Part shown: positions 1 through 11,019 of the stretch, in pieces | How positions within the stretch are numbered: position 1 is the stretch's first letter | Layout of the letters: each line of letters starts with the position of its first letter | DNA from: Candidatus Electronema aureum | Lineage (GTDB): Bacteria; Desulfobacterota; Desulfobulbia; Desulfobulbales; Desulfobulbaceae | Assembly (NCBI GenBank): GCA_004284765.1 | Contig: NQJD01000054.1 | Span: 1-11,019, forward strand | Reading direction: 5' to 3' | DNA length: 11,019 nt | The notes under the pieces: generated by a model | Database searches by the model: none | The model's input: only the letters and a program-made list of their open reading frames with translations | What the model was told of the DNA's origin: nothing | Translations under genes and position numbers: made by a program

Positions 1-187
1 AGTATGCGAAGATGTCCTTATCACATTCGAGTTTGAAATACTCGCCGCAGATTTCCATAGTGATGACTTCTTCATCTGTTAAGGCAGGGTTAAATCCGCC
101 CCGCCGCAGCCGACATTGCTGCCTGATGACACCGTATTGTTCACAGACAAGCAGAAAGACAGCAATAACAAAATCGTCTCGATCCAT
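1..187 (-). CDS. DDE transposase, IS4/IS982-type, N-terminal 62 codons only (partial; continues past the left window edge)
   Basis: My reverse-complement translation from ATG at 187-185 gives MDRDDFVIAVFLLVCEQYGVIRQQCRLRRGGFNPALTDEEVITMEICGEYFKLECDKDIFAY with no stop before position 1. It is absent from the ORF track because it has no in-window stop. AAGGAG lies 7 nt upstream on the minus strand (plus-strand 195-200). The 'R-R-G-x-x-P-x-L-(S/T)-D-x-E-V-I-T-M-E-I-x-G-E' pattern is one I recognise from N-termini of IS4/IS982-like transposases. The exact family is tentative. Confidence 0.6.
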   Translation of the reverse strand, partial: MDRDDFVIAVFLLVCEQYGVIRQQCRLRRGGFNPALTDEEVITMEICGEYFKLECDKDIFAY

Positions 188-328
188 TGGCGCACTCCTT
201 GTGAATAGGGCTTAGATACCACTATTCTACAGGATGCGCCCAATGGATCGGGCATCTTTTTTAAGAGTTGCACATTAGGTAAAGAGGATCATCCCGCTGA
301 TGAAAAAGATGAAGTCCGCACCGTAATC

Positions 329-2869
329 ATGCTGCCCCTGACTCGCCGCCAGATTGAAACGTATGCAAAAAATTGCGGTGTGCAGGACGCAGAAGCCTTC
401 ATGAAGGAACTCCAGCGGCAGGAAGCGTGGAGGTTTGCCAATCGTCCCCTTGATTGCAGCAATCTTGTTCAGATATGGAATGCAAAAGGAAAATTTGGCA
501 CACTTCAAGAACAGCACGAAGCGAGTATTGCGGCGAAGCTCAAAGATGACCCGGAACGGCCTGACAACAACCTGCTGACACCTGAAGATGCCAGAGCAGG
601 GGCGGAACGACTCGCTCTTGCCTTGGCCCTCACACAAACTCGCACGCTTTTAGCTCCGGGACATGAAGCAGCGGAAGGCGTGCTTGACCCGGCTGCGATT
701 CTCACCGATTGGACTGATGCCAAGCGGAACGCGCTTCTCCGCCGTGGGCTGTTCGATCCGGCAACCTATGGCCGTATCCGCTTTCATCACCGTTCCGCAG
801 AGGAATACTTGGCCGCCTGCCGTCTCAAGCGGCTGCGTGAAAAGGGGATGTCGATCAATGCCCTGAAGCATTTTTTCTTTGCGGAAAAGTACGGGGCCGA
901 GGTGGTCATTCCGTCCATGCGGCCAATTGCTGCTTGGCTGGCCTTGTGGAATGATGAAATCCGCTGGGAGCTGATTAAACGGGAGCCGGAAGTCCTGCTG
1001 GCGCATGGCGATCCGGGTTCTCTGTTGCCAGAAGATCGGGCAGAAGTGCTGCGGGGTTTTGCTGCTGCTTATGGCGACGGCGGATGGCGTGGAGTTGAGG
1101 CCCCTTCCATCGGAGAAGTGCGGCGGCTGGCCTGCCCTGAGCTGGCTCCGGTTATTCGGGAGCTATGGGGAAAATATCCTGACAGCGAAGAAGTAGTTAA
1201 GCTGTTTCTGCAATTGATCTGGCAGGGAGCGATAAGGGATTGCGTTGATATTGCTGAAGAGGTTGCCTTCGATACGCAAAGACCGGACTACCAGCGCAGC
1301 ATTGCAGTCTCTGGTCTCGTTGCCTGCGAAGCATCTGAAGTGTTGCGTAAAGTTGCCAAATCATTTCTTGCGGAACAAGAGAAATGGTCAAATGAAATTG
1401 TTCCAAACCTTGCCAAGCAGCTCTTTCCTGCCGCACTTTCTGTGCAAGAGCTGATCAGTTTAATTGAGCGTACACCAAAACCTCGCAGAGGCGCCTCTGA
1501 ATTTTCATGGTATTTAGAGCTGATTGCTGAAAATATTGATCCTTCCTCCAGCACTGCTGCCGAACTTAGGAAAGCGGTTGCCGAACTCATTTGGAACGGA
1601 CGGGACAAAGACCAAGAAGGATATTGGAATATCATAGGAAAATATAGCTACCTGTCTTCAGGGTTGGCTATTTTATGCGGCAAGCAGCTTGCGGAAGAAT
1701 TGCCAGACGATGATTTTATCTGGGCCTGCGCGGTGGCGAATCGTTTTGGCTCACGACCAACAGAGGTGGGAAAGCCTTCTTTGCAGGCTCTCAAGGAGCA
1801 CTTTAAAAATAATGCAACCTTGCGAGAGAAGACGTTCTGGATTGAAGCCGAGTTGATGAACCATTTGATTCAACAAGAGCAAAATAGCTTTTCTCAATTT
1901 AATTCAGTGATTGAAAACAGTCTGTTAGGCCACAGGTTTATTGCTACAATAATTAACGATCGCAGATGGCTGATGAATATGCTTGGCGACCAATCAGCTC
2001 CTTTGAAAAAACGTGAAGTTGCGTATGAAGCAATTTTTCAGCTTTGGAATTTTAATGGACGATTAGAAACCGAAGTAGATGATATACTGCGGGCTGTAGC
2101 CGATAATGCGTCTCTTTCTGAGAAGGTCAAACAAGATACTGCTCCCAAACAGAAAAAAGAAACAAAATTGGACCGACGGTGGCGCAAACAGGAATGCGTT
2201 CGCAAAGGTCGTGAACGCCAGCGGGTAGAGAAATGGCGAAAATGGCGGAACGAGCTGTTGACAGATACAGAAGCAGCGTTTAGCCAAGAACGCGTTTCAT
2301 CAACGCTGTACAATCTATATCATTGGCTCAATATTCATACGAAAAAACATAGTCCATCCAAAGTTTGGAACAAAGCTGCGCTCACCCAATCCTTCAATGA
2401 AGAAGTTGCTTCCCGTGCTGCGGCTGCCTGCAAAGAAATTTGGCGCGAGGAAACTCCTGTTTTATGGAGCAATCGCCCGTGCGATAAAAGAGGTGAGTGC
2501 TTTTATGTTTGGCACTACGGCTTGTTTGGTCTTATGGAAGAGTCTTCTTCGACAGGATGGGCTAAACATCTGAAGACTGAAGAGGCTGAACGTGCTGCTG
2601 CCTATGCAACTATCGAAACAGACGGATTTCCTCTTTGGCTTGCTGACCTCGCAATAACGCATTCTGATGCTGTTGCATCAGTTTTAGGTGATGAGATTGA
2701 CAGGGAGCTGTTGTTAGCTGCCGATGAATCATATCTTCCTGTTCTGAATGCCGTCGCCTCTCATGCAGACAGCTCGATAAAGCAGCTTTTAAAATCTTGC
2801 CTTCTCGCTGCCCTGCTGCGATGGGACAGCATAACTTCAGAAAAAAATTCTATCGGTCATCTTGGATAA
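329..2869 (+). CDS. N-terminally truncated NACHT-type STAND NTPase remnant (post-P-loop helical and winged-helix module plus a long helical repeat region); probably a gene fragment
   Basis: Longest ORF in the window. The frame is open upstream to 209, but there is no in-frame start and no SD before ATG 329. Three motifs occur in the order and ~150-aa spacing of the post-Walker-B 'L-x-P/G-L/F-s..q..Y' motif and the winged-helix 'F-x-H-x-S/T-x-x-E-Y/F-L-A-A' motif of NACHT NTPases: aa2-14 LPLTRRQIETYAK, aa37-50 ANRPLDCSNLVQIW, and aa151-163 RFHHRSAEEYLAA (nt 779-817). No Walker A GxxxxGK[ST] occurs anywhere in the 846 aa. The remainder looks helix-rich by eye, with a K/R/E/W-rich stretch at nt 2129-2260. 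Confidence 0.6.
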   Translation: MLPLTRRQIETYAKNCGVQDAEAFMKELQRQEAWRFANRPLDCSNLVQIWNAKGKFGTLQEQHEASIAAKLKDDPERPDNNLLTPEDARAGAERLALALALTQTRTLLAPGHEAAEGVLDPAAILTDWTDAKRNALLRRGLFDPATYGRIRFHHRSAEEYLAACRLKRLREKGMSINALKHFFFAEKYGAEVVIPSMRPIAAWLALWNDEIRWELIKREPEVLLAHGDPGSLLPEDRAEVLRGFAAAYGDGGWRGVEAPSIGEVRRLACPELAPVIRELWGKYPDSEEVVKLFLQLIWQGAIRDCVDIAEEVAFDTQRPDYQRSIAVSGLVACEASEVLRKVAKSFLAEQEKWSNEIVPNLAKQLFPAALSVQELISLIERTPKPRRGASEFSWYLELIAENIDPSSSTAAELRKAVAELIWNGRDKDQEGYWNIIGKYSYLSSGLAILCGKQLAEELPDDDFIWACAVANRFGSRPTEVGKPSLQALKEHFKNNATLREKTFWIEAELMNHLIQQEQNSFSQFNSVIENSLLGHRFIATIINDRRWLMNMLGDQSAPLKKREVAYEAIFQLWNFNGRLETEVDDILRAVADNASLSEKVKQDTAPKQKKETKLDRRWRKQECVRKGRERQRVEKWRKWRNELLTDTEAAFSQERVSSTLYNLYHWLNIHTKKHSPSKVWNKAALTQSFNEEVASRAAAACKEIWREETPVLWSNRPCDKRGECFYVWHYGLFGLMEESSSTGWAKHLKTEEAERAAAYATIETDGFPLWLADLAITHSDAVASVLGDEIDRELLLAADESYLPVLNAVASHADSSIKQLLKSCLLAALLRWDSITSEKNSIGHLG
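2841..2847 (+). repeat. A7 homopolymer at the junction of the 846-aa and 388-aa ORFs (candidate frameshift or slippage site)
   Basis: The sequence g-aaaaaaa-ttc is read directly. The downstream ORF is in the +1 frame relative to the upstream ORF and opens at 2835, just before the tract. A6 or A9 would fuse the two ORFs. Confidence 0.9.
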
Positions 2870-4028
2870 GGTCATCAGAGTCCTTAATGACACCGCCGAA
2901 GCAGATGAACGTGCAATTCTTGCTGCGGAATGCGCCGCACGATTTAGCAAAGAGCCAAACGGTCCGCTTGCACTGCCTTGGCTGACAGGACTGTTTCACT
3001 TTAATCCTCTTCAAGGCATTGATACTATCGAACAAACATTGAATGCTGTTAAGGAATCCGAGCGGACAGAACTGGCGGTACGTCTTTTTGCGAACGGCAC
3101 TTCACCACGCCTGTTTGAAATGACAGATAAAAATATTCGTGCAAATGCGTTGAAACGATTGCTTCTATGCGCCCGTACTTACATCCGTCCAGAACAGGAT
3201 AATGTCCGTGATGAAGGTGTTGTTTATGATATAGATGCCCGTGATCATGCCCAACGTGTTCGCAGCGGATTGCTGGAATCTCTCATCGCGACACCCGGAG
3301 CAGAGGCCCACAAAACCATTCTGGAACTAGCTGATGATCCGCTTTTTGCTGGTGATCCAGACTGGTTACGTTTCCGAGCGCGGGAGCAAGCGGCAAAAGA
3401 TGCTGAGTTCGCTCCATACATCCCAGATACTCTGGTCACGCTTGAAAAGAAGTTCGAGGCACCGCCGCGCAGCCGGGATGAACTATTTGTTGTCATGATG
3501 GACCGGCTTGATGATATTCAGCATTATATTGCGCATCATAAATTCACGATTCGCCAGACACTCCGCTGCATTAAACAGGAAACAGAGATGCAGCGTTATC
3601 TTGCTGGAAAACTCCACGACAAAGCAAATGGAGCTTATGCTGCTGTCGAACGTGAGCCGGAAGACGCGGACAGAAAGAAACCTGATATTCGCCTTTCCGC
3701 TGTTCAAGGAGACCAGCAAGCCGCTATTGAGGTTAAACTTGCCGAGAACTGGAGCATCAACGACTTCCGGCGCGCTCTAAGCAATCAGCTCATTGGCCAG
3801 TACCTCCGCCATGAAAGCTGCAAAGCTGGCTGCCTGCTGCTGACATGCAACGGCAGCAAATTTTATTGGGAACATCCTGAAACCAAAGAACACATTTGCT
3901 TTTCAGCACTGATTGATTTACTGCAAACTGAAGCCGTCGCAATCGCGCAGGAGAAAAATCACGAAATTCGCCTTGCCGTCTTTGGCCTTGATCTTACTGA
4001 CCCATATCTTAAACCGGCGCATAAATAA
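2862..4028 (+). CDS. Helical region plus C-terminal PD-(D/E)xK (restriction-endonuclease-fold) nuclease domain; likely the C-terminal part of the upstream STAND protein
   Basis: 388-codon ORF whose only candidate start is TTG at 2862, overlapping the upstream stop (TTGGATAA). It has no SD, and the first in-frame ATG is at codon 87. The C-terminal third carries ...KQETEMQRYL...VEREPEDADRKKPDIRLSAVQGDQQAAIEVKLAENWS...SNQLIGQYL. The PD (nt 3681-3686) and E-V-K (nt 3729-3737) lie 14 residues apart, which is the classical PD-(D/E)xK catalytic signature. An acidic residue sits upstream and a Q/Y-containing helix follows. Confidence 0.6.
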   Translation: MDKVIRVLNDTAEADERAILAAECAARFSKEPNGPLALPWLTGLFHFNPLQGIDTIEQTLNAVKESERTELAVRLFANGTSPRLFEMTDKNIRANALKRLLLCARTYIRPEQDNVRDEGVVYDIDARDHAQRVRSGLLESLIATPGAEAHKTILELADDPLFAGDPDWLRFRAREQAAKDAEFAPYIPDTLVTLEKKFEAPPRSRDELFVVMMDRLDDIQHYIAHHKFTIRQTLRCIKQETEMQRYLAGKLHDKANGAYAAVEREPEDADRKKPDIRLSAVQGDQQAAIEVKLAENWSINDFRRALSNQLIGQYLRHESCKAGCLLLTCNGSKFYWEHPETKEHICFSALIDLLQTEAVAIAQEKNHEIRLAVFGLDLTDPYLKPAHK

Positions 4029-4108
4029 TACGCCGTTAACCAATCAGCTCTTGGTCGGGCAGGATATTCCTTCCCGTCCTCTTTCATTTCCACTTTATGG
4101 AGTCCATC

Positions 4109-6046
4109 ATGCCTCTGAAGTTTGATCTGTCCGCCGCCGACCTGAGCAGCGCGGAACTCGCCTCGCTTAAAGAGATGCGCACACGCTGCGCCCGCCGCAT
4201 CCTGCTTTCCACCAGCCTTGCCGCGTCCGGGCATCCGGGCGGCTCGCTGTCTTCGCTCGACATGCTGCTGGTGGCCTACGGCATCCTGCGCCATGATCCG
4301 AAGAATCCCCGCATGGAAGCGCGCGACCGCTTTGTCGCCTCCATCGGCCACATCTCGCCGGGCGTGTACAGCGTTCTTGCCGAGCACGGCTACTTCAACG
4401 AAGAGGACTTCCTTGCAGGCTTCCGCCGCACTGGCTCCGGCTTTCCCGGCCACGTGGAAAGCATCGTGCCGGGCGTGGAGTGGGACACCGGCAACCTCGG
4501 CCAAGGCTTGTCCACAGCCGTGGGCATGGCGCACGCCTTCAAGCTCAAGGGCCTGAACAACCGTGTCTTCTGTCTGATGGGCGACGGCGAGCAGCAGAAG
4601 GGCCAGATCGTGGAAGCGATCCGCCACGCTGTGAAGTACAAGTTAGACAACCTGACCGTATTGATCGACCGCAACAAGCTGCAAATCTGCGGCAGCACTG
4701 AGGACATCATGCCGCAGTGTATGCAGAAGCTCTACGGCGGTCTTGGCTTCAATGCGGTCAAGCTGGAGAACGGCCACGACTGCAACGCCATTTATAAAGC
4801 GATGCGCGATGCCTACCGCAACATCAGCGGCGTGCCGACCGTGCTCATCGCCCAGACCGTCATGGGCAAGGGCATCTCTTTCATGGAGAACAAAGCCAAG
4901 TATCATGGCTCGACTCTGCCTGCGGACGATCTTGCCAAGGCTTTGGCTGAATTGGGCGTGGCAAATGATTTTGAGCAATGGCAGGAGAAGCGCAAGCAGC
5001 CGGTCAGCGGCAAAAGCATCATGCCGCCGCGAGCTGATTACCCAAGCGTGCAGGCGGGCGAGCCGATCGTCTATCCTGTTGACAAGCCTACGGACTGCCG
5101 TTCTGGCTACGGCAATGCCTTGACGAGTCTGGCCCAAGCCAACAACAAAGCAGGACAGCCGCCGGTGATCGTTGGCATCTCCTGCGACCTCGAAGGCTCA
5201 GTGAAGATGGACGGCTTTCATAAGCATTCGCCGCAGGCATATCTGGAGCTGGGCATTCAGGAGCACCACGCCGCAGGCACAGCAGGAGCAATGAGCTGCG
5301 AGAATTTCGTCACCTTCTTCTCCACATTTGGCTCATTTGCTGTGTCAGAGGTATACAACCAGAACCGGCTCAACGACTTCAACCACAGCAATGTGAAAGT
5401 GGTGGCCACGCACGTTGGCCTTGATGTCGGCGAGGACGGCCCAACGCATCAGTGCATTGACTATCTCGGCCTGATGAAGAACTACTTCCGCTTCTCGGTC
5501 TTCATGCCTGCGGATCCCAATCAAACCGACCGGATCATCCGCCACATTGCCGTGCAGCCGGGCAATCACTTCGTCGGCATGGGCCGCTCCAAAACTCCGA
5601 CCATCACCCGCGAGGACGGCAGCATCTACTATGATGCTGATTACGTCTTCACGCCCGGCCAAGCAGATTGGCTGCGTGAAGGCACGGACGCGACCATCAT
5701 CACCTATGGCGCGTTGACACCGGCCTGCATTGAGGCGTGGAAGCTGCTGAAGCAGGCGGGCAAGTCAGTCGGCGTGCTGAACATGGCATCGCTGCTGCCC
5801 TTGGACAAGGACGCAGTGCTTGCAGCGGCCAAACGCGGCCCCATCGTCACCGTGGAAGATCACCATGTGGAAACCGGCCTCGGCGCGTCCGCAGCTGCGG
5901 TGCTGATCGACAAGGGTCTTGCCCCGAAGATGAAACGCTTGGGCGTGAAGCAGTACGGTGGCTCAGGCAAGCCGTCTGATCTCTACAAGCAGCAAGGATT
6001 AGACGCGGAGTCCATCGCCAAGACCGTGCTGGAGCTGCTCGGCTAA
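4109..6046 (+). CDS. tkt: Transketolase, single-chain fusion of the short 'split-type' N- and C-terminal halves
   Basis: The protein contains SGHPGGSLSSLDMLLVAYG (the TPP-binding N-terminal motif of split-type transketolase N-subunits), GNLGQGLSTAVGMA, and CLMGDGEQQKGQ...NLTVLIDRNKLQI (GDG...N TPP motif). It also has a pyrimidine-binding and C-terminal half (GIQEHHAAGTAGAM, THVGLDVGEDGPTHQ). The ORF track starts at ATG 4097, but GGAG at 4099-4102 lies 6 nt before ATG 4109, so 4109 is preferred. Confidence 0.9.
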   Translation: MPLKFDLSAADLSSAELASLKEMRTRCARRILLSTSLAASGHPGGSLSSLDMLLVAYGILRHDPKNPRMEARDRFVASIGHISPGVYSVLAEHGYFNEEDFLAGFRRTGSGFPGHVESIVPGVEWDTGNLGQGLSTAVGMAHAFKLKGLNNRVFCLMGDGEQQKGQIVEAIRHAVKYKLDNLTVLIDRNKLQICGSTEDIMPQCMQKLYGGLGFNAVKLENGHDCNAIYKAMRDAYRNISGVPTVLIAQTVMGKGISFMENKAKYHGSTLPADDLAKALAELGVANDFEQWQEKRKQPVSGKSIMPPRADYPSVQAGEPIVYPVDKPTDCRSGYGNALTSLAQANNKAGQPPVIVGISCDLEGSVKMDGFHKHSPQAYLELGIQEHHAAGTAGAMSCENFVTFFSTFGSFAVSEVYNQNRLNDFNHSNVKVVATHVGLDVGEDGPTHQCIDYLGLMKNYFRFSVFMPADPNQTDRIIRHIAVQPGNHFVGMGRSKTPTITREDGSIYYDADYVFTPGQADWLREGTDATIITYGALTPACIEAWKLLKQAGKSVGVLNMASLLPLDKDAVLAAAKRGPIVTVEDHHVETGLGASAAAVLIDKGLAPKMKRLGVKQYGGSGKPSDLYKQQGLDAESIAKTVLELLG

Positions 6047-6047
6047 G

Positions 6048-6164
6048 AGCAAGGTACACCTCCCTTGGCAACAGCAAGGTGCCTTGCTTCGTAACGAGAA
6101 GGCACCTTGCTTGGCAACGGCAGGGTACCTTGCCGTCGCGCTTCAGGGTACCCTCTCATCTATG
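6048..6164. repeat. Five tandem ~23-bp degenerate units, each with a palindromic AAGGYRCCTT-like core
   Basis: Cores: AAGGTACACCT 6051-6061, AAGGTGCCTT 6076-6085, AAGGCACCTT 6099-6108, AGGGTACCTT 6122-6131, AGGGTACCCT 6145-6154. Core-to-core spacing is 24-25 (depending on alignment of the longer first core), 23, 23, 23 bp. TTGGCAAC recurs at 6065-6072 and 6111-6118. Confidence 0.8.
6075..6109 (+). terminator. Candidate hairpin downstream of tkt, formed by repeat units 2 and 3 (no U-tract)
   Basis: CAAGGTGCCTT (6075-6085) is the exact reverse complement of AAGGCACCTTG (6099-6109), an 11-bp stem. An inner TCG/CGA extension surrounds a TAA loop. It begins 29 nt after the tkt stop. No T-run follows, so intrinsic-terminator function is uncertain. 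Confidence 0.3.
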
Positions 6165-6223
6165 CCGCAGGAAAGGCGGGCTGAATGAAGGGCATACTTC
6201 CTCTACTTAATCGGAGATGAGTC

Positions 6224-6901
6224 ATGGCTACATTTCTCAACACCAGCAAGATCAATTTCTTGCTCGACGAGCTGATTCAAACAGCTAAGGAAGAACTGAT
6301 TCTGATCAGTCCCTTCCTCAAGTTTAACGACCGGATGCAGGAGCTGCTGCACGATAAGGGCGGGCAGCGGCTTGAGGTCAACATCGTGTATGGGAAGCAA
6401 GAGCTACAACCGAACGAAACGAAGTGGCTGGCAGAACAAAAGCACATCAAGACCAGCTTCTGTAAGAACCTACATGCGAAATGCTATCTCAACGAGAACC
6501 ATTGCATCATCACCAGCATGAATCTGTATGACTTCAGCCAGGTGAACAACAATGAAATGGGGGTGTCGTTCTCGAAGACGCAGGATAAGCTGCTGTATAA
6601 TGGCGCGTATGAGGAGGCACAGCGGCTGCTCCGCATCAGCGGCGAGAACAAGCCCGCAGTGCCAGCGTCCGAGCAGCATCAGGAATGGAGCAAGCTGACC
6701 ACGGCCAAGCTGGCAGAACACCTTGGCAAGTCAAGCAATGAGATATTCGGCCTGCTGCTGAAAGAAGGCTATCTGGAGATGATCAAGGGAAGTTACGAGC
6801 TAACCGAGAAGGGGCGAAAAGTGGCAGGTGGTGAGAAGAGAATAAGTAAATACGGAGGTGCTCCGTATTTCCTCTGGAACAAGCCGAAGCCAAAGCAATA
6901 A
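6224..6901 (+). CDS. Single-HKD phospholipase D-family (Nuc/BfiI-like) nuclease with a C-terminal wHTH-like domain
   Basis: GGAG at 6213-6216 lies 7 nt before the ATG. The N-terminal LDELIQTAKEELILISPFL is the usual PLD-fold opening. The HKD-type motif is NLHAKCYLNENHCIITSMNL (nt 6473-6523: H84-x-K86, N90/E91 in the Asp position, T-S-x-N100 for G-S-x-N). The C-terminal ~75 aa (WSKLTTAKLAEHLGKSSNEIFGLLLKEGYLEMIKGSYELTEKGRKVAGG...) reads like a helix-turn-helix plus wing. Confidence 0.7.
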   Translation: MATFLNTSKINFLLDELIQTAKEELILISPFLKFNDRMQELLHDKGGQRLEVNIVYGKQELQPNETKWLAEQKHIKTSFCKNLHAKCYLNENHCIITSMNLYDFSQVNNNEMGVSFSKTQDKLLYNGAYEEAQRLLRISGENKPAVPASEQHQEWSKLTTAKLAEHLGKSSNEIFGLLLKEGYLEMIKGSYELTEKGRKVAGGEKRISKYGGAPYFLWNKPKPKQ

Positions 6902-6913
6902 AGTAGACCTTAT

Positions 6914-7954
6914 TCATTCCACTTCCTGTGTCACTGCCCCATTCTTCTGCGCTCTTGCCCAAGCCCGCAGATTGCCTGTCCTATCCGATTCATCCATGAT
7001 CTCCCGGCCTATAATCTCCTCAATGATGTCTTCTAAGCTGATCACACCAGTTACGCCACCGTACTCATCTACCGCCACAAAGAGATGCTGCCGCCGTTCA
7101 AAGAACTCCAGCATCACCTTGTCCAATGGTGCAATCTCTGGGACGAAATGCGCCGGACGCATGAGTTCAGCTAACCGTAACTGAGCATTGCCTATGGCTA
7201 ACGCCTCCATTACCTCGTAGCTGTGGACAATGCCGATTACGTCGTCGCTGTCTGTACCGCAGACTGGCACTCGACTATGTACCCGCAATCGCTCCTCTAG
7301 CCGCACTGCTTCGGCAACAGTGGTGTCACCGTTCATGGTGAAGGTTACGGTGCGCGGAGTCATCACTTGCCGCACGCATTTACGGCGCAGGGCAATAATG
7401 TTCGTAATCACTATCTCTTGTTCCGCACCTATCTCACCTGAACTACGGCTCAGGCGAGCTATGGTGATCAGCTCCTCAGCGGAAACGGTGTATTCAGCAG
7501 CCTTGGGGACAAGGTGGGTCACAGCTTGGCCTATCATGATCATCGGCTTGAGCAAAAAGACCATCAGCTGGAGGGGCTGGGCGATGTACGGGGCTAGCGA
7601 GGTGTTAAAGGCAACGCCAATCGTCTTAGGCAAGATTTCCGAAAACAAGAGGATGACCAAGGTGAAGAAGGCGGAAAACCAAATCAGCATATCCTCGCCG
7701 AACACCGCTGCTGCCGCTGCCCCTGCTACTGCGGCTCCCATTGTGTTAGCAATGGTGTTCAGGGTGAGGATAGCAGCAATAGGCTGATCGATGTTGCTTT
7801 TCAGCTTTCTCAGCACCGTTGCTGCGGACGGGTGTTCCTCAGCCATCATCTCAATCCGGCTGAGAGGCAGGGAATACAGGGCTGCCTCGAGTAGGCTACA
7901 GCAGGCAGACATAAGGATAGACAGGCCGCAAGCAAGAACAAGCTCCAAAAGCAT
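6914..7954 (-). CDS. CNNM/DUF21 transmembrane domain plus CBS-pair protein (HlyC/CorC-family, 'hemolysin family' transporter), lacking the CorC_HlyC C-terminal domain
   Basis: The hydrophobic N-terminal half contains LLEAALYSL...LNTIANTMGAAVAG...SEILPKTIG, which are typical DUF21/CNNM motifs. It is followed by VRQVMTPRTVTFTM...VPVCGTDSDDVIGIV and ...LFVAVDEYGGVTGVISLEDIIEEIIGEI-like CBS-pair sequence. GGAG lies 7 nt upstream of ATG 7954 on the minus strand. Confidence 0.85.
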   Translation of the reverse strand: MLLELVLACGLSILMSACCSLLEAALYSLPLSRIEMMAEEHPSAATVLRKLKSNIDQPIAAILTLNTIANTMGAAVAGAAAAAVFGEDMLIWFSAFFTLVILLFSEILPKTIGVAFNTSLAPYIAQPLQLMVFLLKPMIMIGQAVTHLVPKAAEYTVSAEELITIARLSRSSGEIGAEQEIVITNIIALRRKCVRQVMTPRTVTFTMNGDTTVAEAVRLEERLRVHSRVPVCGTDSDDVIGIVHSYEVMEALAIGNAQLRLAELMRPAHFVPEIAPLDKVMLEFFERRQHLFVAVDEYGGVTGVISLEDIIEEIIGREIMDESDRTGNLRAWARAQKNGAVTQEVE

Positions 7955-8015
7955 GATCGATCTCCGGGGGTGATTATTTTCACAATTCCCTGTATCCTAA
8001 CCGAAACGAACTATT

Positions 8016-8042
8016 TTGCCAATTGGCTGAACAGAGTATAAT
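8016..8042 (+). promoter_or_regulatory. Candidate sigma70-type promoter for pepA
   Basis: TTGCCA (8016-8021), then a 15-nt spacer, then a perfect TATAAT (8037-8042), 52 nt upstream of the pepA ATG. The spacer is shorter than the optimal 17 nt. Confidence 0.35.
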
Positions 8043-8094
8043 GGCTCCCGGTCAGCCGGAGCGCGATTAACTTTTCCATACAGAGGACGCACGC

Positions 8095-9636
8095 ATGAAG
8101 ATTGAACTGAACAAAGAAGACGTGGAGCTGTTTGAAGGTGACTTGCTGGTTTATTTCCTCCGGGAGACCGGGGGCAACGCGGTGATGTGTCCCTGCAAGG
8201 TGCTCCGGCGGAACATCAAGTACGCTTGGAAGATTGGCGACTTCTCTGGCAAGAAGGGCGAGACCTTTCTGTTCTATCCAGCTGCCGCGAGCAAGGATAT
8301 CAAACATAACTTAGCGGCTGGCCGGGTCCTGGCAGTTGGGCTAGGCAAGACCAGCGAGCAGCCAGATGCCCTGCGCGAGCAGCTCCGCTTGGCCGCAGGC
8401 ACAGCAGCGCAGCAGGCAGCTAGTCTGAAGGTAAAGAGCCTGCTGGCGGTTTTGCCAGAACACACCGGTCTCGTCGATGCTGACGTAGCAGAGTGTATCA
8501 GCGAGGGCCTGCTGCTCGGCAGCTACCGCTTTGACCGACATAAGAGCAAGAAGAAGAAAGACGATGAGCCAGTTGTCAAGATCGAGACAGTTGCCCTGCA
8601 TACGGGTGGTCTTGATCAGGATGCGGTCAAGCAGGGACTCCACCGGGGCGAGCGGGCAGCCAAGGCAGTCTGCGCGGCCAGAGACATGGCCAACGAACCA
8701 GGCAATGTCTGGACTCCTAAACGCTTTGCCGAGTTCGGCGAGAAGCTGGCCAAAGAACACGGCCTCGAATGCACGGTCATCAATAAGCCAGAGATGCGCA
8801 AGCTCGGCATGGGCGGCCTGCTCGGCGTGAGCCAAGGTTCAGTGCAGCCGCCTAAGCTGGTGGTTCTCCGCTATCAGGGCAGCGAAGAGAAGAAGGCTCC
8901 CACGCTGATGCTGGTCGGCAAGGGCCTGACCTTTGACTCCGGCGGCATCAGCCTGAAGTCACCGCTGGGCATGGAGGAGATGAAATACGACATGTGCGGC
9001 GGCGCGGCGGTGATCTGCGCCATGCAGGCCATTGCTGAGGAGAAGCTGAAGGGCATCAACGTGGTGGCTCTGATCCCGGCGAGCGAGAACCTGCCGTCCG
9101 CCACAGCCCTCAAGCCAGGCGACATCATCACCCATTTCGGCGGTATCACCTCGGAAATTGTCAACACCGACGCGGAAGGGCGACTGATTCTCGCCGACGC
9201 GCTGGCCTACGGTATTACCACCTATAAGCCAAATGCCGTGGTTGATCTCGCCACCCTGACCGGCGCGGTGATCATTGGTCTCGGTCATCACCGCAGTGGC
9301 CTGCTCGCCACGGACGACGCGCTGGCCGCGCAGATCAACGCCGCTGCTGAACGGGCAGGCGAACCGGTCTGGCGGCTACCGCTGGGGCCGGAGTATTCTA
9401 AGCAGATTAAATCCACGGTCGCGGATATTAAGAACAGCGGTGGCAAGGAAGCTGGCACGATCACTGCGGCGGCCTATTTACAGGAGTTTGTCGGCGATAC
9501 ACCTTGGGCGCATTTGGATATCGCCGGAACCGCGTGGGGATTCACCGAGAAGAGCTACGTTCCTAAAGGGCCGTCGGGGATTGCGGTGCGCACCCTCCTC
9601 AATCTGGTGCGCGACTGGCAGGTCAGCAAGAAATAA
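8095..9636 (+). CDS. pepA: Leucyl aminopeptidase (M17 family)
   Basis: Contains VGKGLTFDSGGISLK, MKYDMCGGAAV and the M17 signature NTDAEGRLILADAL. The 513-aa length is typical. A purine-rich AGAGGA lies 7 nt upstream of the ATG. Confidence 0.93.
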   Translation: MKIELNKEDVELFEGDLLVYFLRETGGNAVMCPCKVLRRNIKYAWKIGDFSGKKGETFLFYPAAASKDIKHNLAAGRVLAVGLGKTSEQPDALREQLRLAAGTAAQQAASLKVKSLLAVLPEHTGLVDADVAECISEGLLLGSYRFDRHKSKKKKDDEPVVKIETVALHTGGLDQDAVKQGLHRGERAAKAVCAARDMANEPGNVWTPKRFAEFGEKLAKEHGLECTVINKPEMRKLGMGGLLGVSQGSVQPPKLVVLRYQGSEEKKAPTLMLVGKGLTFDSGGISLKSPLGMEEMKYDMCGGAAVICAMQAIAEEKLKGINVVALIPASENLPSATALKPGDIITHFGGITSEIVNTDAEGRLILADALAYGITTYKPNAVVDLATLTGAVIIGLGHHRSGLLATDDALAAQINAAAERAGEPVWRLPLGPEYSKQIKSTVADIKNSGGKEAGTITAAAYLQEFVGDTPWAHLDIAGTAWGFTEKSYVPKGPSGIAVRTLLNLVRDWQVSKK

Positions 9637-9673
9637 CCTCGAACTTCCCTAATAATACAGCAAGGAGAATACG

Positions 9674-10675
9674 ATGCCAAAACGCAAAGGCATTACCGTC
9701 AGCCGCCAGATCATGGACAGCCAGCACAGACACCCGGAAGCCACAGGCGAGCTGACTGGCCTGCTCAACGACCTGATCGTGGCGGCCAAGATCATCAATT
9801 CTGAAGTCAACATGGCCGGTCTGGCCGGAATACTGGGGCAGTCAGGCCAGATCAACGTCCAGGGCGAGCAGGTACAGAAGTTAGACGATTTCGCCAACCT
9901 AACCATCAAGCGGCGCATGGAGCAATGCGGCTATGTCTGCATCATGGCTTCGGAAGAGGACGACGGCGTGATTCCGGTGTTGGACAGCTACGCGGGCAAA
10001 TACACCGTGGCCTTTGATCCGCTGGACGGCTCGTCCAACATTGACGTGAATGTCAGCATCGGCACCATCTTTTCCATCCACCGCCGCAAGAGCGAGGGAA
10101 CGCAGGGACAGATTGCCGACTTGCTCCAGACAGGCCGCGAGCAGGTGGCGGCGGGCTACATCATCTACGGCTCCAGCACTATGCTGGTCTATACGGTCGG
10201 CGAGGGCGTGCAGGGATTCACCCTTGACCCCAGTGTCGGCGAGTTCTTCCTTTCCCATCCTGACATCAAGATCCCGCCGAAGGCCAAGTATTACAGCATT
10301 AACGAGGCCTATTCCCGCTACTGGCACGACAACACCCGCGCCTATGTCGAGCATCTGAAGGACTTGGATGAGCGCGGCGAGTGCTCCTACAGCCTGCGCT
10401 ACATCGGCTCGCTGGTGGCGGATTTCCACCGCAACTTGATCAAGGGCGGGGTCTTTGTTTATCCCAGAGACCGGAAGAGTGGCAAAGGCAAGTTGCGCCT
10501 GCTCTATGAGGCTGCACCGCTGGCCTTGTTGGTTGAACAGGCGGGTGGCCGGGCGATTGACGATGAGGGCCGCAATATCCTTGATTTGGAGCCGACTGAG
10601 CTGCATCAGCGAGTGCCGCTGATTATTGGCTCTAAGGAAGAGGTTGATCTGGCGGAGCAGTATTTCAAGAGCTAA
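9674..10675 (+). CDS. fbp: Fructose-1,6-bisphosphatase, class 1
   Basis: Contains GELTGLLNDL...AAKIINSEV, ASEEDD, FDPLDGSSNIDVNVSIGTIFSI, YGSSTMLVYT, RYIGSLVADFHRNL and GKLRLLYEAAPLA, all hallmark FBPase class-I motifs. AAGGAG lies 6 nt upstream of the ATG. The gene is 37 nt downstream of pepA and is probably co-transcribed. Confidence 0.93.
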   Translation: MPKRKGITVSRQIMDSQHRHPEATGELTGLLNDLIVAAKIINSEVNMAGLAGILGQSGQINVQGEQVQKLDDFANLTIKRRMEQCGYVCIMASEEDDGVIPVLDSYAGKYTVAFDPLDGSSNIDVNVSIGTIFSIHRRKSEGTQGQIADLLQTGREQVAAGYIIYGSSTMLVYTVGEGVQGFTLDPSVGEFFLSHPDIKIPPKAKYYSINEAYSRYWHDNTRAYVEHLKDLDERGECSYSLRYIGSLVADFHRNLIKGGVFVYPRDRKSGKGKLRLLYEAAPLALLVEQAGGRAIDDEGRNILDLEPTELHQRVPLIIGSKEEVDLAEQYFKS

Positions 10676-10703
10676 GGATTAGACCATCCGCGCAGAACAA
10701 GCA

Positions 10704-10744
10704 AAAGGGAGGGCAGAGTAGTTCTGTCCTCCCTTTGCTATTTT
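10704..10744 (+). terminator. Rho-independent terminator after fbp
   Basis: AAAGGGAGGGCAGA (10704-10717) pairs with TCTGTCCTCCCTTT (10723-10736) to form a 14-bp stem with one G-U pair and a 5-nt loop. GCTATTTT follows. It begins 28 nt after the fbp stop. Confidence 0.8.
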
Positions 10745-10795
10745 CGGGAAGATATTCAGAAAATGAGAATTATAGCATTTAAGTTTTTAGATCGT

Positions 10796-11019
10796 CTAAA
10801 AAACCGTCTCGACGCAAACGCTTAAACTCTTGATGCCGTCAGCTATTTTTTTAATTTTCGCCTTCATGGAAGCCAAAAATTTTTCTATCGGGTTTAAATC
10901 AGGGGAATAAGGCGGCAAAAAAAGCAGCCTGCAAGAAAACTTTTTCACAAGCTCCTTCGTTTTTTCTGATTTATGAAAACTTGCGTTGTCCATCACAACA
11001 AGAGAATTTTTGGGAATTT
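10796..11019 (-). CDS. IS630/Tc1-mariner-family DDE transposase, C-terminal part (partial; continues past the right window edge)
   Basis: The minus-strand frame is open to the window edge: ..IPKNSLVVMDNASFHKSEKTKELVKKFSCRLLFLPPYSPDLNPIEKFLASMKAKIKK... The 'DNAxxHK' and 'LPPYSPxLNPIE' pair is the signature second-D and E region of IS630-family transposases. The GTG start in the ORF track is an artefact of the window edge. The region is markedly AT-rich. Confidence 0.85.
   Translation of the reverse strand, partial: IPKNSLVVMDNASFHKSEKTKELVKKFSCRLLFLPPYSPDLNPIEKFLASMKAKIKKIADGIKSLSVCVETVF

Follow-up and report, generated by a model that had tools for sequence, protein, structure and literature searches.

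STAND immune proteins of the canonical kind carry an effector at the N-terminus, an NTPase in the centre and a sensor at the C-terminus, and perception of a trigger leads to their oligomerisation (bioRxiv 10.1101/2022.07.19.500537; PMC13581612). In bNACHT25, the effector is an Mrr-like restriction endonuclease (REase) (bioRxiv 10.1101/2022.07.19.500537). The present study deals with hyoA, a gene whose products form a curated and recently named NCBIfam family of NACHT proteins, and with its remains in a stretch of 11,019 nucleotides from Candidatus Electronema aureum (assembly GCA_004284765.1, contig NQJD01000054.1, positions 1 to 11,019 of the forward strand; hereafter the window). Positions 281-4028 of the window are the 3' 85% of a hyoA gene of about 1,448 codons. 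We consider it very probable that this gene is a pseudogene, split by an insertion sequence (IS) of the IS982 family and frameshifted by one extra G, and that the intact HyoA protein is composed of a NACHT NTPase, a region that appears to be a helical solenoid and a predicted C-terminal PD-(D/E)xK nuclease; its mechanism would be of the NACHT-to-nuclease kind proposed below.

Two open reading frames (ORFs) of the same strand, 329-2869 and 2862-4028, lie in different frames, overlap by 8 nt and belong to one homologous coding unit. The frame of the first is open upstream to position 209, and its product matches P0006, a hypothetical protein recorded for Candidatus Electronema aureum, with 100% identity; a search of the E. 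coli genome gave no match to the window. Homologues confirm the coding unit and show its coding signal to be real: at E<=1e-5, it is matched by at least 917 cluster representatives, the majority of which have a length of about 1,450 aa. Among the orthologues, intact ones measure 1,449-1,484 aa and share 76-93% identity, and the closest of them (P0001, 1,449 aa) is 93% identical to the window piece. A closed genome, OW818638.1 (here L001), is 100% identical to the window over positions 1-6037, a window position being the L001 position minus 9672. The frameshift was located by comparison with the locus of Ca. Electronema sp. VV (L002), which carries an intact orthologue and is 94% identical in DNA.

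The family is NF058534.1 of NCBIfam, an equivalog named "NACHT domain-containing antiphage protein HyoA" with a cutoff of 1200 bits. A fusion of the two window ORFs matches the 1430-position model from 190 to 1428 with 1091.3 bits, and it stays below the cutoff because about 190 N-terminal model positions are missing. The reconstructed 1,448-aa protein reaches 1300.3 bits over positions 1-1428, above the cutoff and close to the 1289.9 bits of P0001. The gene shares with the family its length, its single-gene organisation and an end-to-end match, and the Electronema aureum copy differs from it in being a pseudogene. A sister family, EruA (NF058535.1), aligns at model positions 129-1261 of 1318 and appears to share the layout; with scores of 130-164 bits where 1000 are required, the gene is not a member. 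The initial annotation of this DNA, made from its letters only, had proposed a poorly described architecture. The locus is instead a dead member of an already named family, not a new architecture awaiting discovery, since that family has a curated NCBIfam name. A Pfam search with the window-only protein returned nothing beyond a weak DUF3839 match.

The first of the two lesions is at the 5' side. Positions 1-280 of the window, on the minus strand, are the right-hand 280 bp of a 1,015-bp IS982-family element, as judged from identity to the closed genome, the score of the transposase and the inverted repeats. The transposase start codon is at 189-187 on the minus strand, from which the gene reads leftwards out of the window; the 297-aa product obtains 201 bits on the IS982 equivalog NF033520 (cutoff 130). 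The element is bounded by imperfect 23-nt terminal inverted repeats with 87% complementarity (L001 8938-8960 and, at window 258-280, L001 9930-9952) and flanked by a target-site duplication of 7-8 bp, AAAGAGG(A), with its right copy at window 281-287 and its left copy at L001 8931-8937, beyond the edge of the window. In its transposase equivalog, inverted repeats, target duplication and length of about 1 kb, it is an ordinary member of the IS982 family with no notable difference. Positions 209-280 are open in frame yet are IS DNA and include the inverted repeat 258-280; the gene remnant begins at 281, and the range 209-4028 given earlier for the gene has to be shortened accordingly.

Directly across the element, and outside the window, a 212-codon ORF holds the first 203 codons of the gene, that is, the HyoA N-terminus. 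This 5' fragment (L001 8331-8937) carries the Walker A motif AEAGSGKT, the Walker B motif WFFLDSVDEL and the sequence ISCRPSDW. Excision of the IS together with one copy of the duplication restores the reading frame. A simple IS982 insertion after codon 203 split hyoA, and the 5' part was retained. The initial annotation had described instead a 5' end deleted by the IS and a missing N-terminus that might hold a further domain. Within the window this was a natural view, since no Walker A motif is present there, as had been stated, and IS DNA abuts the ORF. The probability left to it is close to nil: codons 1-203 are preserved intact beyond the 1,015-bp element, with a matching target duplication, and full-length homologues begin only about 45 residues before Walker A. 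No N-terminal effector or extra domain is found in these full-length homologues.

The second lesion separates the middle piece of the pseudogene (281-2863, plus strand; codons about 204-1061 of 1,448), which is delimited by the HyoA model match and by its identity to P0001, from the 3' piece (2865-4028, plus strand; codons 1062-1448 and the stop codon), for which an AlphaFold2 (AF2) model and alignment A1, described below, provide the evidence. In the DNA alignment with L002, the sole indel in this region is one more G in the window, CTT-G-GAT at 2864/2865 on the plus strand (CTTGGATAAG, compared with CTTGATAAG in the orthologue). This extra G creates the stop codon at 2867-2869, and the family consensus H-L-D-x-V-L-R-I-L is preserved across the lesion point. 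Stop codons confine the lesion between a TAA of the second frame at 2832-2834 and the TAA at 2867-2869. The A7 tract at 2841-2847 (plus strand) lies inside this permitted zone and was therefore chosen in the initial annotation, where one coding unit, 329-4028, was interrupted at the tract. The single unit is borne out by the homology of the two ORFs, and its break has to be moved to the G. The intact orthologue has an identical A7, which is therefore not a lesion; deleting one A opens the frame, as had been proposed, yet it turns the true NSIGHL into ILSVIL, and the alignment with the orthologue places the lesion elsewhere. A programmed frameshift was also considered and rejected, the orthologues having one continuous ORF and the gene being already broken by the IS.

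The extra G could be an assembly or sequencing error, in which case the IS insertion alone would inactivate the gene. It is a single-base difference, and the genome comes from an enrichment-culture metagenome. We nevertheless regard an error as quite unlikely: an identical 846-aa truncated product is found on two contigs, across the site, window and closed genome agree at 100% identity, and the extra base forms a GG dinucleotide, not a long homopolymer, while the nearby A7 reads as in the orthologue. The claim that the gene was inactivated twice, by the IS982 insertion and by the extra G, is thereby upheld. A functional split gene is a far less probable reading still. In the closed genome, three fragments are called as ORFs, one of 212 aa with the P-loop, one of 846 aa and one of 388 aa with the nuclease part, and their catalytic residues are intact, as would suit proteins still working as separate parts. 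Against this, STAND proteins require a contiguous unit of nucleotide-binding, helical and winged-helix domains and the break falls within this NOD module; furthermore, in none of the 120 homologues listed does such a split occur as a conserved state.

The pseudogene reading is thus retained for both lesions. When the IS, one duplication copy and the extra G are removed, a stop-free ORF results that encodes the 1,448-aa protein. The dN/dS ratio relative to the orthologue is 0.34, and most of the divergence from it arose under purifying selection. Inactivation is probably recent, because of this ratio, of the stop-free reconstruction and of the HyoA score above the cutoff.

The assignment of HyoA to the NACHT-type STAND proteins is supported by its motifs and profiles. 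With Walker A taken as GxxxxGK[ST] and Walker B as hhhhDxxDE, both motifs of the NACHT NTPase are found in the 5' fragment, and both are nearly invariant in the family. After the P-loop, NACHT proteins carry the motifs [ST]RP and, in the winged helix, FxHxxxQE[FY]LAA, a pattern that the HyoA motifs fit: those conserved in the family are GSGKT, FFLDxVDEL, SCRP, LP[LM]..QI and RFHHRSxQEYLAA. In the window, LPLTRRQIETY (332-364), ANRPLD (437-454) and RFHHRSAEEYLAA (779-817) occupy family-conserved columns; the last of these and ISCRPSDW of the 5' fragment are conserved at 90% or more. Pfam NACHT (PF05729) is the top family for 10 of the 12 N-terminal slices of family members that were searched, with a best E-value of 2.8e-7, and its gathering score of 26.7 bits is exceeded in some homologues (29.2 bits for a slice of P0004). 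Profile searches of the PDB with the alignment of full-length homologues and with the N-terminal alignment gave no NLR match. The initial annotation was correct in recognising a NACHT-type STAND protein and in letting the window begin within the NACHT module.

About 850 residues lie between the NACHT NTPase and the C-terminal domain of intact HyoA. The last 235 or so of these are all-helical in the AF2 model, with pLDDT values above 90, and occasional, weak HEAT matches occur in the middle region of two homologues. The middle region appears to be an alpha-helical, HEAT-like solenoid.

The C-terminal domain comprises about 150 residues. Its predicted PD-(D/E)xK nuclease core spans 3570-3992 (plus strand), as delimited by invariant residues, AF2 topology and the list of Foldseek matches. 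In alignment A1 of full-length homologues, which comprises 63 sequences and includes homologues down to about 44% identity, six residues are invariant; in the numbering of the second ORF, and on the plus strand of the window, they are E239 (3579-3581), D274 (3684-3686), E289 (3729-3731), K291 (3735-3737), Q308 (3786-3788) and Y313 (3801-3803). The first four make up a D...(D/E)xK motif with its upstream acidic residue. AF2 modelled the 387-residue C-terminal piece with a mean pLDDT of 89.4 and the domain alone with a pLDDT of 85.9 and a pTM of 0.85. Both models have the order alpha-beta-beta-beta-alpha-beta-alpha-beta, with helices at 239-253 and 298-313, strands at 258-263, 275-279, 285-292 and 319-328, D274 just before strand 2 and the ExK in strand 3.

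When the model of the domain alone was compared with the PDB by Foldseek, the top of the list consisted almost entirely of proteins of the restriction-endonuclease fold, led by the FokI cleavage domain (E-value 5.9e-3, probability 0.84) and Can2 (probability 0.91) and including OkrAI, Hjc, SwaI, McrC, R2 RLE, PaqCI, RecU, XPF, YaeQ, HindIII and DdmD. With the 387-residue model, helical-repeat proteins dominate and the search is uninformative. Motif and topology together support well a predicted PD-(D/E)xK nuclease fold, one that is not statistically nailed down. The proposal of a helical region followed by a C-terminal nuclease therefore stands as to topology and as to the signature residues (PD at 3684-3686, E at 3729, VK at 3735), and it lacks a strong statistical match to the nuclease fold.

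Several results weigh against this picture of HyoA and have to be set beside it. The FokI match is the best by E-value that Foldseek gave for the domain alone against the PDB; TM values are about 0.35-0.39 and no match reaches E<=1e-3. Pfam models PDDEXK_3/4, DpnII-MboI, XisH and DUF3839 all remain sub-threshold on the C-terminal domain. Sequence-profile searches of the PDB with A1 and with the C-terminal and N-terminal alignments returned nothing beyond chance-level matches to superantigen-like proteins and an RNAP inhibitor. For residues from about 440 to 1061, helicity is suggested by the weak HEAT matches and by an impression from the initial annotation, the AF2 modelling being that of the C-terminus. 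On Pfam NACHT, the closest orthologue P0001 obtains 21.9 bits, below the gathering score. PADLOC-DB v2.0.0 (2023), which includes models of Avs and NLR-like proteins, has none for this family and gave no match for the fused protein or for four full-length homologues. Finally, a search of one library of papers found none on HyoA, the antiphage label being that of the NCBIfam name and the context; the terms HyoA, Hyo, EruA and Eru led to unrelated papers only, and a 2026 survey of STAND proteins does not use the names HyoA and EruA (PMC13581612).

Alternatively, the C-terminal domain might serve for DNA binding or sensing, or as a scaffold without activity, and something else, for instance the NTPase itself or a recruited host factor, would provide the output. 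The weak structural matches and the sub-threshold Pfam scores would agree with this, as would the N-terminal position of the effector in canonical Avs and bNACHT proteins. We judge such a role rather unlikely, since the E...D...ExK set is invariant across the 63 sequences, as expected for an active enzyme, and since HyoA has no other effector-like domain and no conserved partner gene. A C-terminal nuclease is accordingly kept as the preferred reading.

Of 185,579 species-representative genomes, at least 226 contain relatives of HyoA. Their distribution is patchy and extends over many phyla, with representatives in Desulfobulbaceae, Alpha- and Gammaproteobacteria, Acidobacteriota, Entotheonella, Verrucomicrobia, Planctomycetes, Cyanobacteria, Nitrospira and Vibrio. 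Among 80 loci, no conserved partner gene was found beyond close relatives, the only other shared features being shadow ORFs inside hyoA, and HyoA would therefore work alone. In three unrelated genomes, the neighbours include a type I restriction-modification system, RelE/HTH toxin-antitoxin genes, SLFN/AlbA_2 proteins and large methyltransferases, together with an AAA_15/21 ATPase, a NERD-kinase, an MmeI-type enzyme and an integrase. The NCBIfam name, these defence-type neighbours, the patchy distribution and the lack of a partner gene support an antiphage role for HyoA, in line with the candidate antiphage function put forward in the initial annotation.

A mechanism can be proposed by analogy with Avs and bNACHT proteins. 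In intact HyoA, a phage-derived or phage-induced trigger would bind to the helical region. This would free the NACHT module, allowing nucleotide exchange and oligomerisation. The C-terminal nuclease domains, clustered in this way, would become active by proximity and cleave DNA. Such cleavage would stop the infection, probably at a cost to the cell.

Among described systems, bNACHT25 (Kibby et al., bioRxiv 10.1101/2022.07.19.500537) resembles HyoA in its NACHT-type NTPase, in a conserved winged-helix histidine region, in single-gene antiphage defence and in an effector of the restriction-endonuclease fold. However, the REase of bNACHT25 is N-terminal and its sensor C-terminal, whereas HyoA has its NTPase at the N-terminus and the nuclease-like domain at the extreme C-terminus, past the helical region. 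Avs (AVAST) proteins may be compared for their nuclease effectors, their defence-island context and a proposed logic leading from sensor to oligomerisation to effector; in contrast to HyoA, their effectors are N-terminal and their STAND clades mostly not NACHT, and no PADLOC model for Avs matches HyoA. HyoA, with EruA, might then represent a mechanistically distinct NLR layout, with the NTPase first, a putative sensor solenoid in the middle and the PD-(D/E)xK domain last. This is a tentative idea, and we would hold it to be doubtful at present. If true, the geometry of HyoA activation would differ from that of the solved Avs and bNACHT assemblies with N-terminal effectors. Neither sequence nor fold searches retrieved a solved structure of the HyoA type, and the literature search yielded no paper on its mechanism.

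The surroundings of the gene give some hints on its history. A 92-bp direct repeat of the transketolase 5' end, 88-90% identical, brackets hyoA. The downstream copy is at window 4109-4200 (plus strand). The upstream copy, at L001 8207-8298 and thus beyond the window, contains the start codon and makes up a remnant ORF of 34 codons; around the intact orthologue the layout is the same, with the repeat at L002 9877-9968. It looks as if a 4.4-kb hyoA cassette had been inserted into the 5' end of the transketolase gene (tkt) in an ancestor of Electronema; no integrase lies in the vicinity. The G+C content is 44-49% in the 3' two-thirds of hyoA (1501-4000) vs. 57-61% in the adjacent transketolase gene (4001-6000), which is consistent with horizontal acquisition of hyoA. 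Between the two Electronema alleles (window 281-4028 and L002 10001-14350), dS is strongly mosaic: it ranges between 0.014 and 0.41, the first 200 codons having 0.41 and codons 800-1260 only 0.014-0.03. This mosaic suggests recombination between hyoA alleles or gene conversion within the gene. Upstream, the neighbourhood in Ca. E. aureum differs from that in Ca. Electronema sp. VV and contains small ORFs and a Y1 transposase gene. In the latter, a tRNA-like sequence, GCGCCAATAGCTCAGTTGG...TTCGAATCC, is located at about 9600-9680 of L002, between cysS and the cassette formed by the tkt remnant and hyoA.

Further observations concern the rest of the window. Between window positions 6037 and 6038, 4.86 kb of additional DNA are present in the closed genome (L001 15710-20565); their absence from the window reflects either a collapse in the draft assembly or a variant with a deletion. 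This segment encodes, on the minus strand, a 1,263-aa protein with the P-loop ASGMGKS that has no match in NCBIfam or PADLOC and could be the product of another STAND-like defence gene. It also holds a copy of the 3' part of transketolase, called as a gene of 279 aa, with about 79-86% DNA identity. At 6224-6901 (plus strand), the window encodes a 225-aa protein with a PLD-like nuclease domain (PLDc_2, E-value 1.6e-6) and a C-terminal winged-helix region; its similarity to DrmC (DISARM) and MkoB (Mokosh) is weak, all scores being far below the cutoffs. Downstream of the FBPase gene, an AT-rich repeat of 82 bp (10771-10852), which has no significant fold (z = -0.49), is 94% identical to L001 6281-6362, a second copy some 14 kb away that adjoins a Y1 transposase gene of the IS200/RAYT type.

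For the annotation of this genome, the "hypothetical" ORFs of 212, 846 and 388 aa and the IS become one hyoA pseudogene. The Electronema locus is one more IS-inactivated defence gene in an IS-rich cable-bacterium genome and matters little for that genome. What the comparison documents concerns the family: a protein that stands alone, is about 1,450 aa long and has no N-terminal effector, an invariant E/D/ExK set, a patchy spread over many phyla and, in the three neighbourhoods inspected, restriction-modification and other defence-type neighbours. Intact homologues, such as P0001 or P0016 from Thiobacillus, are reasonable targets for studying how an N-terminal NACHT module may control a C-terminal effector.

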